A stretch of DNA of 16,138 bases, taken from contig JAFCCC010000012.1 of the NCBI GenBank assembly GCA_017610385.1, positions 1-16,138 on the forward strand, read 5' to 3'. Within the stretch, counting starts at the first letter, position 1. The number at the start of each line of letters is the position of its first letter. The position numbers and the translations under genes are program-made. Source of the DNA: Candidatus Nanohalarchaeota archaeon (GTDB taxonomy: Archaea > Nanohalarchaeota > Nanosalinia > Nanosalinales > JAFCCC01). This document shows, one piece after another, positions 2,937 to 16,138 of this stretch. The notes beneath the pieces are model-generated. The model was not told the origin of the DNA. It did not search any database and saw only the letters and a list, made by a program, of their open reading frames with translations.

Positions 2937-5693
2937 ATGATAAGAAGAATCCTTTATCTATTTTTAATTCTATTTTTATTAGTTCCAGCCACACATGCTG
3001 CATGGACTTTAACAGCCACAAGTTTACCCATGGAACTAGATAGTAATTCATACACCGTACTTAGAGCAAAATTACTAAATGGAACAACCCCTATTGATGA
3101 AGAAACATGTATTCCGGGCCCCATTACAATAAAATACCAGTACGGGTCAACATTGGGCTTTCTAAATTCGATTGGGAATGGGATATGGGTTGCAGAACAT
3201 TCACCCACAGACTTACCTGCAACAATCACCATAACAGCTACAGGAGATTGTGGGGTAGCAAGTGATGTGACTACATTTTTAAATCTTCCAGCAAACGGTG
3301 GTCTTTCCGTAGACATTTTGAATTTCAACTCAGAAGCACCACAAGGAAGTTCAAAAGTACTTTTGGTTAATGTTAGTAATTCTAGCGGCGTTGTTTCTGG
3401 CGCTACGGTGCTATACAGAATATATAATTTATCAGGTTCTTCACAAGCAATAATGGAAGGCACATTTTCAGAATTCGGTGAATTTTATAATGCTACGATG
3501 GAACTGCCTACAGAACTTGGAAACTATTCATATGAAGTTACTGCAACGGCTCCAATTGGGACGGGAGTAACAGGTGGGGACGGACGTTTATTTCATACAG
3601 TTGAAACGATTTCTGGTCCAGTAAGCATTAATGGTACAGAAAACAAATGTGCAACCTCTAATGGAATTATTACTTCATGCGAATTAAATTCTATGCTAAG
3701 CTTTGAGTTTGAAGAAGAGGTTGGGGTTCCAGATAATGTTTGGGTAGAAATCTGGGGAACTGATTTAATAGAAAAAGTCAATTTAAGTAATGTAACAGAA
3801 GGTAGCCAAAGATATTGGCGGGGAACTTATTCTTTACCAGAAGATTATAATTTATCAAAAACAAAAGAATCTCAAAACAATGAGCTAACTTTAAAAGTTA
3901 TTGCAAATGACGAATTTGAAAATTACACCCTATTAACCTCAAATGTAAATTTAGTTACTTATTGGACAATTCCGTATTCTAAGTATTCTACTAGACCAGG
4001 AGAAGTATTAGATATTTCTTTTGAAGTTGTTAAACCATATAGTGGAGATCATTTGCGTATGGGGGATTTAGAAGGTTTTAATGTTTCTGTATTTTATATC
4101 ACCGATTCTGGGACAAAAACATCAGTAAAAAACTATACTCTCTCACAGATGACTTATGATAATGACTTATTTCATCTGCAACATACTGTACAAGAAGATA
4201 CTCTTGAAGGGACCTATGGATATCAGTGGACTATATTAAATGCTTTTGGTCAAAAATCATCAGATTCACTCACATACAAAGAATTTTCAGTAATTAGTCA
4301 AACACAATCTGGTCCAGTAATAATTAATCGGTCTGTGATTTCTAATTCATTTGAAGAATCAGGAATATTTTATGAAATTTTAAACTTTAATAACACAGAT
4401 TTAAGTAGAGTCATTGTTCGACCAATCGTTTTAGGCTCTATTTCCGAAATTGTTTTTGGGGATTTTGTTCTAGATGAAAATAACGCGAGTGAAGATAGCA
4501 AATACATAATTGAATCCAATACTTCAAAAGAATTTATTATTGGATATAATATAACTAATAATTTATCTGAAAACTACGATGGAACTTTGGTTATTCGGGT
4601 GTTCTCGGATTTACAGGGCAGCATAGAAAAGTACAGAACAGAAATACCGTTAGAAACGCAAATTGGTGGCAAAACAACAAACGGAACCCTTCAAGTTAAT
4701 GTAAATAAAATAGAACGAAACTTTATTGATTCGGGAACATATGTTCAAAATATTACCGTATTTAATAGGGGTTCTGAGACCATAAATGTAAGTATTAGCG
4801 CAGAAGGGACGATTAAACAAATAAATTCTATCTCGCCAACAGAATTAACAATTGCTGCAGGGGATGTAGGCTATGCTTTTTTCACTCAAACAGTATACGT
4901 AACTGATAATGGAATTTATGGGGGATATTATGTTTTTAATACCTCTGAAAATAAAATAAAAATTCCTGTAAATCTAACCACAGACATTTCTGGTATTGTA
5001 AGTGGAAAATTACAAGTAACTATTGAAAACGCTTCACTTGGTTCCGTTATTAAAGGAGATCCATTAAATATAACTGTAGAAGTAAAAAATATAGGGCAAT
5101 CTAATTTAAGCAATTTTACAGCCTCTACTCTAGTTATCTCTAACTTATATACCATCACAAATGCAGAAGGACTTGTATTAGAACCAGAAGAAAGTATTAA
5201 CTTAGAACTAACAATTCACACAGAAAAACTAAGTGAGGGAATAGACAATACAAGAAAATTAATTATTTCTGCAGATCTCAATGCGGAAAATTTTACATAT
5301 ATTTCATTAAAAGTAGATGCAAACTATTCGACTAAATTTGAGAGTCTAAATAGCTCTATATCAACATATAGAACTGACTTGGAGGACATTTTAACAGAAG
5401 AGTTAAAAGAAAACAAAACAGATTTAGAATCAAAAATTACAGATTTAGAAAATCTCATTGAAAAAGGAAAAGGAGAATGGGACACTAAAAACTATAATGC
5501 ATCTAAGACAACATATAGTGCTGCAGAAAGACTAAGTGAAGAAATACATTCTAGAATAAGAGCTTTGCAAAATTATACGCCAGCTCCCGATGAAACTCCT
5601 TCAGGGAACTCTAAAGCGTGGATTTTCATAGTTATTTTTATAATTTTAATTGTTATTGGAGTAGTAATTTACATGAGTTTAGTTCCAGAGTGA
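2937..5693 (+). CDS. Large secreted, C-terminally anchored surface glycoprotein with Ig-like beta domains
   Basis: Signal peptide (MIRR + hydrophobic core + ATHA/A); Thr/Ser/Asn-rich beta body with over 25 N-x-S/T sequons; CARDB-like motifs (ITVEVKNIG, LEPEES); coiled-coil near the C-terminus, Pro-rich linker and a single TM helix. Confidence 0.85.
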   Translation: MIRRILYLFLILFLLVPATHAAWTLTATSLPMELDSNSYTVLRAKLLNGTTPIDEETCIPGPITIKYQYGSTLGFLNSIGNGIWVAEHSPTDLPATITITATGDCGVASDVTTFLNLPANGGLSVDILNFNSEAPQGSSKVLLVNVSNSSGVVSGATVLYRIYNLSGSSQAIMEGTFSEFGEFYNATMELPTELGNYSYEVTATAPIGTGVTGGDGRLFHTVETISGPVSINGTENKCATSNGIITSCELNSMLSFEFEEEVGVPDNVWVEIWGTDLIEKVNLSNVTEGSQRYWRGTYSLPEDYNLSKTKESQNNELTLKVIANDEFENYTLLTSNVNLVTYWTIPYSKYSTRPGEVLDISFEVVKPYSGDHLRMGDLEGFNVSVFYITDSGTKTSVKNYTLSQMTYDNDLFHLQHTVQEDTLEGTYGYQWTILNAFGQKSSDSLTYKEFSVISQTQSGPVIINRSVISNSFEESGIFYEILNFNNTDLSRVIVRPIVLGSISEIVFGDFVLDENNASEDSKYIIESNTSKEFIIGYNITNNLSENYDGTLVIRVFSDLQGSIEKYRTEIPLETQIGGKTTNGTLQVNVNKIERNFIDSGTYVQNITVFNRGSETINVSISAEGTIKQINSISPTELTIAAGDVGYAFFTQTVYVTDNGIYGGYYVFNTSENKIKIPVNLTTDISGIVSGKLQVTIENASLGSVIKGDPLNITVEVKNIGQSNLSNFTASTLVISNLYTITNAEGLVLEPEESINLELTIHTEKLSEGIDNTRKLIISADLNAENFTYISLKVDANYSTKFESLNSSISTYRTDLEDILTEELKENKTDLESKITDLENLIEKGKGEWDTKNYNASKTTYSAAERLSEEIHSRIRALQNYTPAPDETPSGNSKAWIFIVIFIILIVIGVVIYMSLVPE

Positions 5694-5727
5694 ATCTTTT
5701 TAACCTAACAAAAACAAATTGTTTTGT

Positions 5728-6141
5728 ATGGCAATAACAGATTTTTTAGGAGTATTTCAGCTAAATAATCTTTTGTTATTTGTTCTAATTGTAATTATTC
5801 TAGTGATTGCATTCAAACTTCTTAAAATATTCTTTGAAACATTGTTAGTTGCGATATTATCTGCAGTATTTTACTTATTTTTAAGCTATTCTGGAGCGAA
5901 TTTAGACATGAATGCAACTAATATTCTATTTTTCTCTTTAATTGGAACAATAGTCTTCATAATTTATTCTATGCTCTCTCCGCTAGTTTCTTTGCTCTTT
6001 AAAACAGGCAATAAAGTAGTTAAAGGAACTTCAAAAGCATTAAAGGGAAGAAAATTCAAATCAAGAATAAAAAGCAAACCAAAAGAAAGTGCACATCCTC
6101 AAGAAAAAGAAGTGATCTTAAAAGAGATTAAAAATGACTGA
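5728..6141 (+). CDS. Uncharacterised multi-pass membrane protein with basic C-terminal tail
   Basis: About 3 hydrophobic helices. ATG 5728 preferred because TTTTTAAC (5697-5704) lies about 27 nt upstream. Confidence 0.8.
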   Translation: MAITDFLGVFQLNNLLLFVLIVIILVIAFKLLKIFFETLLVAILSAVFYLFLSYSGANLDMNATNILFFSLIGTIVFIIYSMLSPLVSLLFKTGNKVVKGTSKALKGRKFKSRIKSKPKESAHPQEKEVILKEIKND

Positions 6142-6328: not shown

Positions 6329-7009
6329 CTATTTTGTAAATTTAATAAGGGGTGTGCCTTCAATAAGTAATTTTGAAACATCCCCAACAAAAGAATATGT
6401 TTTATTTTCAAATAAGAAAACCGCAGAGCCTTCAAAATCTTTTATAGAAAGAGGTTTATCTTCTAAAAAGATTCTTGCTCCGGAAGAATTAACTTGCCCA
6501 TTAACTGAATCAAAACTAAATCCAGTTTTTGGAAATCCATTAATCTCTAATTTTTTAGGAATTAATTCTTTTGAAAATAACTTGGCGTTTTTAAGACTCA
6601 CGTCTCCGAATTTAAGTTCTCCTGCGTATCCATTTATACTAAGAACCTCTCCGAAAGTAAACAAACCCTTAAAATCAAGAATATGCAAAGTCAGACTACT
6701 GGCATTTGTAAAAACCTCTGATCCTCTTACTTCTACTGAACTTACTCTGGGATTATATGTTAGCTTTATTTCAGATACCGGGGTACTAAATATTTTAGTT
6801 CTAACTGGAAATTCATCGGTTGTAAACAGAGCAGAGATAGGAATTTCAGAATCTGGTGAAAAAGCTCCAAATAGATCAGTTACACTCCAACCGCCTGTTT
6901 TAAAATTACTAGTACTGATATCTGAAATATTAATTGATCCTTGCGCCATGCCGATTGCAATACCCCATAATGTAATAAATACTGCAATCAAAACTTTCCA
7001 ATCGAACAT
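6329..7009 (-). CDS. Hypothetical exported or membrane-anchored beta-rich protein (226 aa)
   Basis: N-terminal hydrophobic helix; BRE/TATA-like CGATAAC..TTATAAAA about 25 nt upstream on the minus strand. Confidence 0.8.
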   Translation of the reverse strand: MFDWKVLIAVFITLWGIAIGMAQGSINISDISTSNFKTGGWSVTDLFGAFSPDSEIPISALFTTDEFPVRTKIFSTPVSEIKLTYNPRVSSVEVRGSEVFTNASSLTLHILDFKGLFTFGEVLSINGYAGELKFGDVSLKNAKLFSKELIPKKLEINGFPKTGFSFDSVNGQVNSSGARIFLEDKPLSIKDFEGSAVFLFENKTYSFVGDVSKLLIEGTPLIKFTK

Positions 7010-13733: not shown

Positions 13734-14321
13734 ATGAAATTTTTTGATGTGCGTTTTCCAAAAGATGTTAAGACAATTACGCTTTTTCTTGTTTTAGCAG
13801 TTATTTTAGCATACGGAGCATATAATACCGCAGGAACAGCATTACACACGACCATTCCGATTGTTTCTGTTGTCTCAGATTCTATGAAACATGATGAAAA
13901 AACTGGAAGTTCTTATTATGAGTATTTAATAACTAAATTTAGTTATACTAGAACATTTATTGATACCTGGCCACTAAAAAATGGTTTTGTGAGAGGGGAT
14001 TTATTAACAGTGACTGGTGCAAACACATCTACTCTAGATGTGGGGGATGTTATTGTTTATAATCTAAAAAACAGCGAATCAATAGATTGCGATAGATTTG
14101 AAAAAGCTTTAAAAGAGCAAGGAATCGATAAAGTAGTACACAGAATTATTAGAAAATTTACAGAAAATGGAGAGATTTATTTTATGACAAAGGGGGATCA
14201 TAACTTTCAGATGGACCCGTGCAGAATTCAGAATAAAGAGATTGAAGGAAAAGCCATTTTTAAACTTCCCTTAGTAGGTTATTTGAAATTAATCCCTGCT
14301 AAAATCTTTGGTGCAATTTAA
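13734..14321 (+). CDS. Signal peptidase I (S26, archaeal Sec11-like)
   Basis: N-terminal TM, catalytic VVSDSM, GDL, VGDVIVY, VVHRI and TKGDHN...D. Confidence 0.92.
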   Translation: MKFFDVRFPKDVKTITLFLVLAVILAYGAYNTAGTALHTTIPIVSVVSDSMKHDEKTGSSYYEYLITKFSYTRTFIDTWPLKNGFVRGDLLTVTGANTSTLDVGDVIVYNLKNSESIDCDRFEKALKEQGIDKVVHRIIRKFTENGEIYFMTKGDHNFQMDPCRIQNKEIEGKAIFKLPLVGYLKLIPAKIFGAI

Positions 14322-15684: not shown

Positions 15685-15774
15685 TTATTTCTTCCTGTGC
15701 CTCATCTTTCGTCTTCTTTTTCTTTGCTTGTGCTTCCTTAATTTTTGTCTTTTTCTCTTCTTTCCGCAAGGCAT
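15685..15774 (-). CDS. 29-aa basic protein, bS22/mS38 (AURKAIP1/COX24-domain)-like ribosomal protein
   Basis: MPCGKKRKRQKLRKHKQRKRRRKMRHRKK; GAGGT 7 nt upstream (15782-15786); TATA-like TTAATATA at about 15811-15818 on the minus strand. Confidence 0.82.
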   Translation of the reverse strand: MPCGKKRKRQKLRKHKQRKRRRKMRHRKK

Positions 15775-15927
15775 GTATAAAACCTCTCTCAGATAACATT
15801 ATCAGTTAACTATATTAACTTTATTATGGGGGTTCTGGAAGTGAACAACCAAAAAGCAAAAAACGTTATATATTCTTAGTATTAAAGGATAGTGGGTCAG
15901 CCGAGACTCGAACTCGGGTCTGGACCT

Positions 15928-16078
15928 CTTTCTTAGCGTTTAATAAACTCAAACATTTGATTTTAGCTTAAACTTTTTATTAAAAAGTTTTATTTTATTT
16001 TCGCTTAAAGCTTTTTGTTTTTATTTTGCTTAAGCTTTTATTTGAAAAGCTTATTTGCTTGAGCTTTGTGAAAGCTCA
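15928..16078 (-). other. 151-nt tRNA intron with a relaxed BHB
   Basis: 3' bulge AG|A; central helix TTCG/AGAA (3 bp plus G.A); weak outer pairing GAGCTTT/AAACGCTA. Confidence 0.85.
15961..16078. repeat. Tandem foot-plus-hairpin units of the same family as 1-208, inside the tRNA-Pro intron
   Basis: Units at 15961-15990, 15998-16016 (half unit), 16024-16053 and 16054-16078, each with a T-rich GCT foot before an A(G/A)CTTT..AAAG(C/T)T stem. Confidence 0.85.
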
Positions 16079-16138
16079 CCCGAAGGTCCAATGATACCAC
16101 TACACTACCGACCCAAACTTTACTCAAAACATTTCTCA

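Follow-up and report, generated by a model that had tools for sequence, protein, structure and literature searches.

The window analysed here is the whole of contig C12 (JAFCCC010000012.1, 16,138 nt) of the Candidatus Nanohalarchaeota archaeon assembly GCA_017610385.1, which comprises 788 kb in 18 contigs with a GC content of 31–35 % per contig. The genome is estimated to be 93.5 % complete and is the sole member of its family among the genomes compared. Its small size suggests an archaeon of the DPANN type. In what follows, C-numbers denote contigs of this assembly and unprefixed positions refer to C12. Intron-aware ARAGORN located a tRNA-Pro(CGG) gene at c[15892,16114] and an intron of 151 nt (15928–16078) that follows tRNA position 37. 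All parts of the gene lie on the minus strand. The 5′ exon (16079–16114) supplies the 5′ strand of the acceptor, the D arm, the 5′ strand of the anticodon stem and the loop through G37. The 3′ exon (15892–15927) begins with A38, the 3′ strand of the anticodon stem and the variable loop, and its remainder supplies the T arm, the 3′ strand of the acceptor and the discriminator. Together the exons form a complete cloverleaf in which seven of seven acceptor pairs are present by eye, one of them G-U. The assignment of the intron to the canonical 37/38 position (ARAGORN i(37,151)) draws also on RNA folds and on the BLAST mosaic described below, and the gene structure is that of canonical archaeal introns, with an insert between positions 37 and 38 of a cloverleaf that is otherwise complete. 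The 5′ leader runs for 24 nt to the contig end (16115–16138, minus strand) and ends with AAAGTTTG directly before tRNA position +1.

The gene was missed by a default tRNA scan and by Rfam at the gathering threshold, neither of which reported anything on C12, and when Rfam was run at E≤1 on 15700–16138 only weak T-arm look-alikes in the 3′ exon were returned. That the gene is overlooked by both default approaches matters for annotation. ARAGORN called 37 tRNA genes in the genome and Rfam gave 31 tRNA matches; neither set includes a second tRNA-Pro(CGG).

A preliminary description of the stretch had divided about 118 nt of the intron into four tandem units, each a foot followed by a hairpin. This division (15961–15992, 15993–16023, 16024–16053 and 16054–16078, all on the plus strand) held for three units with perfect hairpins of 8–9 bp, whereas the second hairpin proved to be degenerate. 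Unit 4, at 16054–16078, is a TTTGCT foot with the hairpin TGAGCTTT-GTG-AAAGCTCA. As had been described, this hairpin (TGAGCTTTGTGAAAGCTCA, 16060–16078) ends exactly at the 5′ splice site. By BLAST, unit 4 matched 25 of 25 positions at C3:27015–27039, directly 3′ of tRNA-Ala(GGC), and 24 of 25 at C9:73–97, directly 3′ of tRNA-Ala(TGC). Unit 3, at 16024–16053, is a TTTTGCT foot with the hairpin TAAGCTTTT-ATTTG-AAAAGCTTA (16031–16053), and overlapping BLAST matches extend around it: 16012–16060 to C11:142965–143013 (47/49), in the leader of the tRNA at C11:143043–143177 and ending 30 nt upstream of it; 16021–16054 to C9:7284–7317 (33/34), inside the 276-nt intron of tRNA-Pro(GGG); and 16034–16054 to C13:45325–45345 (21/21), upstream of tRNA-Thr(CGT).

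Unit 2 (15993–16023) consists of the foot TTTTATTTTCGCTTAA, the degenerate hairpin, which pairs over 4 bp from its base, and a T-rich run; its foot is matched at 17 of 17 positions at both C9:7192–7208 and C13:131949–131965. Unit 1 (15961–15992) has the foot TTTTAGCTT and the hairpin AAACTTTTT-ATT-AAAAAGTTT. This hairpin is a diverged form of the commonest type in the genome (29/33 to C9:8024–8056) and appears in both the minimum-free-energy and the centroid folds of the intron. The 3′ tail of the intron (15928–15960, minus strand) had been left outside the repeat span, which proved too narrow a limit. In RNA sense the tail contains GTTTGAGTTTATTAAA at 15939–15954, which is identical over 16 of 16 positions to the trailer of tRNA-Arg(TCG) at C3:26235–26250, in the same order and orientation and after a family hairpin there. 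The last 11 nt of the intron are private.

Approximately 140 of the 151 intron nucleotides therefore have counterparts in tRNA leaders, trailers and other introns; there is also a 19/19 match between this intron and an intron of tRNA-Trp. Exact identity between the intron and any other part of the assembly extends over 25 nt at most. The statement best supported by these alignments is that the body of the intron is a mosaic of the same, predictedly self-folding, modules that make up pre-tRNA leaders and trailers and the rRNA spacer.

A relationship between the intron and the opposite end of the contig had also been proposed. The sequence TTTTCGCTTAA does occur at both 1–11 and 15998–16008, two matches where 0.04 were expected and a number reached by none of 200 shuffles, and GCTTRAGCYTTT occurs four times on C12, again against an expectation of 0.04. 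The compensatory difference previously noted between the hairpin TGAGCTTTT-ATCTG-AAAAGCTCA at 88–110 and that at 16031–16053 is a single stem pair altered on both sides (A-T to G-C); the two hairpins also differ at one position of the loop. The shared plus-strand orientation of the intron units and positions 1–208 was upheld as well; the closest relatives of the intron modules, however, lie on other contigs, at 96–100 % identity.

The structure predicted around the splice sites, read by eye from the RNA fold, starts with an anticodon stem of 5 bp and a 3-nt bulge on the 3′ side (A-G^A). In the central helix U32-A, U33-A and C34-G pair, and a G35.A mismatch follows; the 5′ bulge (G36-G37^U) lies at the splice site. 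The outer helix is weak: it consists either of AGC/GCU (3 bp) or of AAAGCUCAAGC paired over a long range with GUUUGAGUUU, an arrangement in competition with the first hairpin. In the fold, the last 11 nt of the intron pair with the anticodon loop at the 3′ splice site. The central helix of the tRNA-Pro(GGG) intron is identical (3 bp and G.A), and its outer helix is GCGC/GCGC. As a whole, the folded intron modestly beats shuffled sequences (z = −2.33; 5 of 200 shuffles as good).

Archaeal tRNA introns are excised by EndA at a bulge-helix-bulge, in its canonical form a 4-bp helix between two 3-nt bulges, and the products are joined by RtcB; the long tRNA-Trp introns with box C/D guide RNAs inside are one example. 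The present genome has one EndA gene (a 184-aa open frame; PF01974, 97.7 bits at C13:61589–61870), an RtcB gene (PF01139, 531.6 bits at C9:33031–34329) and an RNase P RNA (C6:3321–3594). From the position and structure of the insert we infer that the tRNA-Pro(CGG) intron is of the protein-spliced archaeal type and would be spliced out. It resembles canonical archaeal introns in its 37/38 position, in the presence of EndA and RtcB and in carrying RNA modules beyond what splicing needs. It is unlike guide-RNA introns in that its cargo is copies of a dispersed repeat, with no Rfam match at the gathering threshold to a box C/D guide RNA or other curated family, and in its relaxed splice motif.

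It was considered whether the locus might not be a working gene at all, being instead a disrupted pseudogene, a chimera assembled through repeats or a pair of split-tRNA-like halves. Both exons are intact and complementary across the seven acceptor pairs, and tRNA-Pro(GGG) shares the same architecture and central helix, which together argue against such a view. The relaxed bulge-helix-bulge would fit a non-functional locus, as would the availability of tRNA-Pro(UGG) in the genome, since this tRNA might read CCG by wobble. Suspicion of a mis-join is raised by the contig end 24 nt upstream of the gene and by the family repeats at five or six contig ends, but the longest exact shared stretch of 25 nt seems short for a k-mer mis-join. 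With regard to split halves, the intron opens with a hairpin otherwise found after complete tRNA-Ala genes and holds the element TTTATTAAA, which on C3 lies 36–50 nt upstream of an open reading frame (ORF); against this, the TATA-like element stands 12–20 nt from the 3′ exon, probably too close for a complete 3′ half. Taken together, these points make a non-working locus very unlikely.

The preliminary description had suggested a census of the unit across the genome, and its view that the intron was lengthened by a dispersed hairpin-repeat family is borne out by the result. An iterated strict BLAST of the 788-kb genome delimited a family of 20 loci totalling 2139 nt, with near-identical copies outside the intron. 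All modules share one plan: a foot rich in T, then a stem built on T(A/G)AGC...GCT(T/C)A with a loop of 3–5 nt. Twelve of the 20 loci were inside a tRNA or rRNA gene or no more than 100 nt away from one, compared with 13.4 % of non-coding positions; the loci are not mutually independent, and the comparison is conservative because the null counts RNA genes as non-coding. Three more loci lie at contig ends. Four of the 20 are inside three introns, the rest being in tRNA flanks, the rRNA spacer, other intergenic DNA and contig ends. Spacers of protein genes also hold copies, at C9:8024–8183, C13:131927–132050 and positions 1–208 of C12.

The last of these is made up of two parts on the plus strand. 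A composite block of four hairpins, with stems beginning AAGCC, GGAAAT, GGAAACTT and GAGCTTTT, opens the contig (1–115) and is 100 % identical over 114 nt to C3:1–114 and C6:1–114, 96.5 % identical to C9:7084–7196 in the tRNA-Pro(GGG) intron and 97.6 % identical over 82 nt to C13:67229–67310 in a tRNA-Trp intron. It is followed by an array with a 61-nt period in which AAGCC and GAGTTAC hairpins alternate (111–208), located 54 nt upstream of the L21e gene and with BLAST copies on C9, C11, C13, C3 and C6. The 61-nt-period arrays were not accepted as CRISPR arrays, since one and the same hairpin fills every ‘spacer’.

The signal resides in specific stems. Among 286 loose matches to the foot, 28 were followed by at least 8 Watson–Crick pairs from the exact base, against approximately 0.1 expected when the downstream sequence was shuffled, whereas perfect hairpins of any kind showed a slight excess over the shuffled genome (912 vs 770), so the signal is not one of hairpins generally. 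In a search requiring perfect stems, 22 hairpins began with TAAGC, 12 with TGAGC and one with TAAAC, each with a complementary 3′ arm and hence with stem changes on both sides. Uncompensated mismatches were seen in the copies at C3:27093, C9:20, C11:142999 and C11:176304. Module order and number vary at every site, and at some sites the GAGTTAC hairpin is flipped relative to its neighbours.

Of 14 sites in or beside stable-RNA genes, 13 have the T-rich foot on the strand antisense to the RNA, so that in the transcript the hairpin comes first and AAGC(G/A)AAAA after it; only the C13 tRNA-Trp intron block departs from this. Hairpins abut processing sites within 0–3 nt, namely tRNA 3′ ends, the 5′ splice site of the present intron and the +1 position of several tRNAs. 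The family is tied to the discarded parts of stable-RNA precursors. The rRNA genes conform to this pattern. The 16S gene (C9:281–1748, minus strand) is followed by tRNA-Ala(TGC) and then by hairpin modules up to the contig start, while the 23S gene starts at C6:248, 134 nt after the composite block at the start of that contig, and is followed by the RNase P RNA. The spacer between tRNA-Ala and 23S therefore consists of family modules, and the operon is split over two contig starts (C9:1–1748 and C6:1–3594). The 5S gene is elsewhere (C11:142109–142223), between two arrays.

Family arrays form the ends of five or six contigs (C3:1–119, C6:1–114, C9:1–97, C9:42451–42590, C11:176197–176421 and C12:1–209). 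The repeats are therefore a main cause of assembly breaks, and true copy and unit numbers may exceed those assembled.

The distribution of the family among introns was then compared with intron length. There are 15 introns of at least 40 nt in the genome; by BLAST, three had strong matches to the family, one had a single weak match and 11 had none. The three with strong matches, in tRNA-Pro(GGG) (276 nt), the C13 tRNA-Trp (177 nt) and tRNA-Pro(CGG) (151 nt), are three of the four longest, which makes ‘expanded by a repeat family’ a fair wording and agrees with the earlier proposal that the spliced-out intron behaves as a permissive site. The fourth is a second tRNA-Trp intron of 167 nt with no BLAST match to the family, and the other match-less introns are 52–79 nt long. 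The two tRNA-Trp(CCA) genes (C13:67127–67376 and C17:23520–23757, with the 177- and 167-nt introns) have the first approximately 25 nt and the 3′ ends of their introns in common and differ in the interior hairpins. Between the C13 tRNA-Trp and tRNA-Pro(GGG) introns, 82-nt blocks are 93–98 % identical. All three family-bearing introns are at the canonical position; their ends differ from one another, and the matches are confined to interior modules. ARAGORN also reported a ‘tRNA-Pro(AGG)’ at C6:4145–4296 with a 67-nt intron at position 39; as AGG anticodons are uncommon in archaea, either the position given to the intron or the identity assigned to this gene is probably in error.

Searches of other genomes indicated that the module sequences are restricted to this lineage. 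BLAST of positions 1–208 against 40 relatives gave no matches, and BLAST of the whole tRNA-Pro(CGG) gene against 69 relatives of the same order detected the module sequences in none, returning exon-like matches and two weak AT-rich ones (L017 and L018) without a tRNA. Exact patterns for the two commonest hairpins and one composite piece were found in no species-representative genome and no viral contig. Two metagenome matches to a 20-nt stretch of the 5′ exon were dismissed as chance, both being in ATPase genes, where the 20-mer encodes G-I-I-G-P-S-G, with no tRNA.

Within the same order, family f5 has tRNA-Pro(GGG) without an intron in seven genomes and tRNA-Pro(CGG) without an intron in one; this comparison (n=8 genes) covers f5, the other families of the order having given no usable match. 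In genus g10 of f5, tRNA-Glu(TTC) has a hairpin-rich intron of 103 nt in L015 (G013:C27) and no intron in L014 (G016:C10) and L016 (G010:C31), with near-identical exons, which constitutes a filled/empty pair. When pieces of this intron and of a tRNA-Arg intron of 169 nt were compared with three genomes of one genus, 12 non-self matches resulted. Of the 11 that were examined, nine were in predicted introns of other tRNAs (Ala three times, Gln twice, and Thr, Lys, Trp and Cys), one was at a contig end and one was outside any tRNA; the twelfth adjoins an examined match in the same tRNA-Lys gene. A GAAAA...UUUUC hairpin with differing stem interiors was present upstream of tRNA-Pro in five loci from two genera of f5, and the same hairpin type was present in f5 tRNA introns. 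Hairpin modules common to introns and flanks are thus not confined to this genome, although the sequences themselves are lineage-specific.

One explanation for these patterns is that the modules are functional in stable-RNA precursors, as binding sites for processing, folding insulators or promoter or terminator elements, and are kept by selection; the intron would have taken them up for their help in presenting or protecting the pre-tRNA. This would account for an orientation that is constant with respect to the RNA at 13 of the 14 tRNA- and rRNA-associated sites, for hairpins lying directly against the 3′ end of the tRNA, the 5′ splice site or tRNA +1, and for the two-sided changes that distinguish the 22 TAAGC, 12 TGAGC and one TAAAC stems. 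The same could be said of the leader made of a GAGTTAC hairpin, TTGGTG and a second hairpin, which recurs before four tRNAs, and of the f5 relatives, where tRNA-Pro orthologues of different genera retain the GAAAA..UUUUC hairpin upstream and introns carry it too. In the present intron, the 3′ arm of the first hairpin can instead pair with GUUUGAGUUU near the intron 3′ end, which would draw the splice sites towards each other. However, no BLAST match to the family exists in 11 of the 15 long introns or in the majority of the 40 tRNA genes, and the modules are thus no general requirement. Their order, number and even relative orientation vary between sites, several copies have uncompensated mismatches, copies also occur between protein genes, and the sequences were found in no other genome searched. 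Maintenance by selection is regarded as a rather unlikely explanation, but as a serious rival.

With moderate confidence we favour a reading in which modules are copied at the DNA level between the discarded parts of stable-RNA precursors, with no dedicated transposase, the copies being tolerated. Copying would take place by gene conversion or illegitimate recombination at the common feet and module boundaries, and copies would persist where the carrier RNA is removed, a task of RNase P and RNase Z in the case of leaders and trailers and of EndA and RtcB in that of introns. As the carrier RNA is discarded, a canonical intron could swell to 151–276 nt at little cost. Copying of DNA is favoured because of the mosaic module orders, the blocks bounded at module boundaries, the flips and the near-identical copies, and because no transposase or reverse transcriptase was found. 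From these patterns we infer both DNA-level copying and a near-neutral load.

Several observations weigh against this reading. Random neutral insertion does not predict a fixed orientation or exact abutment, and these hint at a role, or at copying, at the RNA level. No recombination intermediate and no empty-site allele of the tRNA-Pro(CGG) intron were found. The leader hairpins of f5 look like conservation for function. As modelled, the bulge-helix-bulge of tRNA-Pro(CGG) is relaxed, whereas the 184-aa EndA is of a size that we take to indicate the homotetramer type, which is the strictest type.

The preliminary description had further suggested a REP/MITE-like element, i.e. one resembling repetitive extragenic palindromic (REP) sequences or MITEs (miniature inverted-repeat transposable elements), and a search for HUH/Y1 transposase or reverse transcriptase genes flanking the unit. 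Neither type of gene was found in the genome. PF01797, the Y1 or REP-associated tyrosine transposase (RAYT) family, gave no matches, while the control was positive in six of 14 reference genomes; reverse transcriptase likewise gave none, and a TnpB zinc ribbon match was below threshold at 22.1 bits. The searches covered Y1, the TnpB zinc ribbon and reverse transcriptase in a genome of the completeness given above. By eye, no direct repeats were seen at the borders of the 82-nt tRNA-Trp intron block or at the ends of the intron array. With no Y1/RAYT found, no terminal inverted repeats or target duplications seen, and some 20 loci, membership of a REP or MITE class was not sustained; the family is probably not REP or MITE in the strict sense, and a dedicated transposase behind the module copying is unlikely.

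Spread by way of RNA, raised in the preliminary description for the excised intron, was also considered; here excised intron or spacer RNA, linear or circularized by RtcB, would be joined into other precursors at EndA-type sites and returned to DNA. Orientation is kept relative to transcription, module arrays begin exactly at RNA cleavage sites, and EndA and RtcB are encoded, all of which such a route would predict. However, the splice-motif ends of introns are not common between introns, only the interior modules being so, and copies also adjoin protein genes; the lack of a detected reverse transcriptase counts mildly in the same direction. A 2014 review (PMC4090602) calls the mechanism of archaeal tRNA intron transposition unknown, which leaves space for such a route. 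On balance spread through RNA is a highly improbable account of the family. The fixed orientation and the exact abutment on cleavage sites give a copying step at the RNA level an outside chance.

The modules might also be the raw material, possibly the vehicle, of new tRNA introns, spacer pieces having been copied into the anticodon loops of tRNA-Pro(CGG) and tRNA-Pro(GGG). Trailer and leader modules would then have been inserted and kept since EndA and RtcB could excise them. We regard this as doubtful; if it is true, the lineage shows intron birth and growth in progress.

The acquisition of archaeal tRNA introns is an old open question, and this genome offers a concrete handle on intron growth or origin. 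Donor-like and recipient-like sites occur side by side, with the same modules at 96–100 % identity both free-standing and in three introns. Precise junctions are now defined for RNA and population data, and the relatives examined lack the tRNA-Pro introns.

The nearest parallel is with the transposed tRNA-intron families of Thermoproteales, reportedly described by Fujishima et al. in 2010. The same review (PMC4090602) states that similar introns at different positions in Thermoproteales suggested large-scale transposition, with the mechanism unknown and supposedly acting at the DNA level. In a 2026 preprint on Asgard archaea (10.64898/2026.10.13.758758), cross-isotype families make up 28.3 % of Thermoproteales intervening sequences vs 1.5 % in Asgard lineages; the study found no general arrival route and states that ‘how they arrive remains open’. 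Intron gain in Caldiarchaeum is linked to a recombinase-bearing element in PMC3293823. The family described here is similar to the Thermoproteales introns in having near-identical sequence in different tRNAs of one genome (33/34 between tRNA-Pro(CGG) and tRNA-Pro(GGG), 19/19 with tRNA-Trp), in its lineage-specific sequences and in an unexplained mechanism for which DNA-level copying is supposed. It differs in that interior modules, rather than whole introns with splice-motif ends, are repeated, in that the three introns are all at the canonical position, and in that further copies stand free outside introns, flanking tRNAs as leader or trailer sequence and lying in the rRNA spacer and in some protein-gene spacers.

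Bacterial REP elements and their mosaic clusters (bacterial interspersed mosaic elements, BIMEs, and REPINs) are mobilized by RAYT (Y1/HUH) transposases. The present family resembles them as a set of short extragenic palindromes with a foot, mosaic arrays and compensatory variation, often at gene ends. It is distinguished by its archaeal host, its size of approximately 20 loci and 35 hairpins, the lack of a detected Y1/RAYT and its tie to stable-RNA genes, including the interiors of tRNA introns. Mobile hairpin elements of organelles, as described for example in PMC7218506 and PMC4524435, are likewise small palindromes in the spacers and introns of a compact genome; the likeness is one of description, and the genome type is different and the introns there are group I/II. 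No description of such hairpin modules in the tRNA introns of DPANN archaea was found in the full-text literature, a coverage that excludes most subscription journals.

Two other roles were examined for parts of the modules. Runs of U5 (RNA sense) were considered as terminators, and they occur inside the tRNA-Pro introns and in the rRNA spacer upstream of 23S; in these positions they cannot terminate transcription efficiently unless separate promoters serve 23S and the 3′ exons. The A-rich tails (AAGCGAAAAUAAAA) were set aside as promoters, as other tRNAs instead show TTTAAA-like boxes approximately 25–35 nt upstream.

The gene neighbourhood on C12 consists of ordinary archaeal information-processing genes. 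By Pfam, the protein neighbours include L21e, an Rpb4-like subunit, DUF655, RrnaAD (rRNA adenine dimethylase, KsgA-type), L10e, diphthamide synthase, an RNA polymerase L-like subunit, TFS and NIF3. A 918-aa ORF at 2937–5693 (plus strand) and shorter ORFs at 5719–6141 (plus), 6329–7009 (minus) and 13734–14321 (plus) had no Pfam match at E≤0.001; these four interrupt an otherwise well-annotated block of translation and transcription genes.

Two further types of hairpin were noted next to tRNA genes. The leaders of four tRNAs (Phe, Ser-GGA, Leu-GAG and Leu-CAA; C9:6505–6560, C10:10192–10250, C11:122230–122290 and C13:47550–47607) consist of a GAGTTA..TAACTC hairpin, TTGGTG and a second hairpin ending at +1, and no TATA-like box was seen at −25 to −35 in them. 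A second hairpin-array family, unrelated to the first, is built on the stems CTTGTGAA-loop-TTCACAAG, AAAACTC-loop-GAGTTTT and CAAACTT-loop-AAGTTTG, with loci at C11:33581–33653, C11:122009–122080, C11:129883–130072, C13:18383–18454, C13:146484–146555, C17:30217–30287, C9:27055–27182 and, in the tRNA-Pro(CGG) leader, 16115–16138. At tRNA-Arg(CCT) and at the tRNA of C6:4145, the last hairpin of this second family lies directly against the 5′ end. The tRNA-Pro(CGG) leader ends with the sequence given above, and other tRNAs have a hairpin whose 3′ arm, AAGTTTG, abuts +1.

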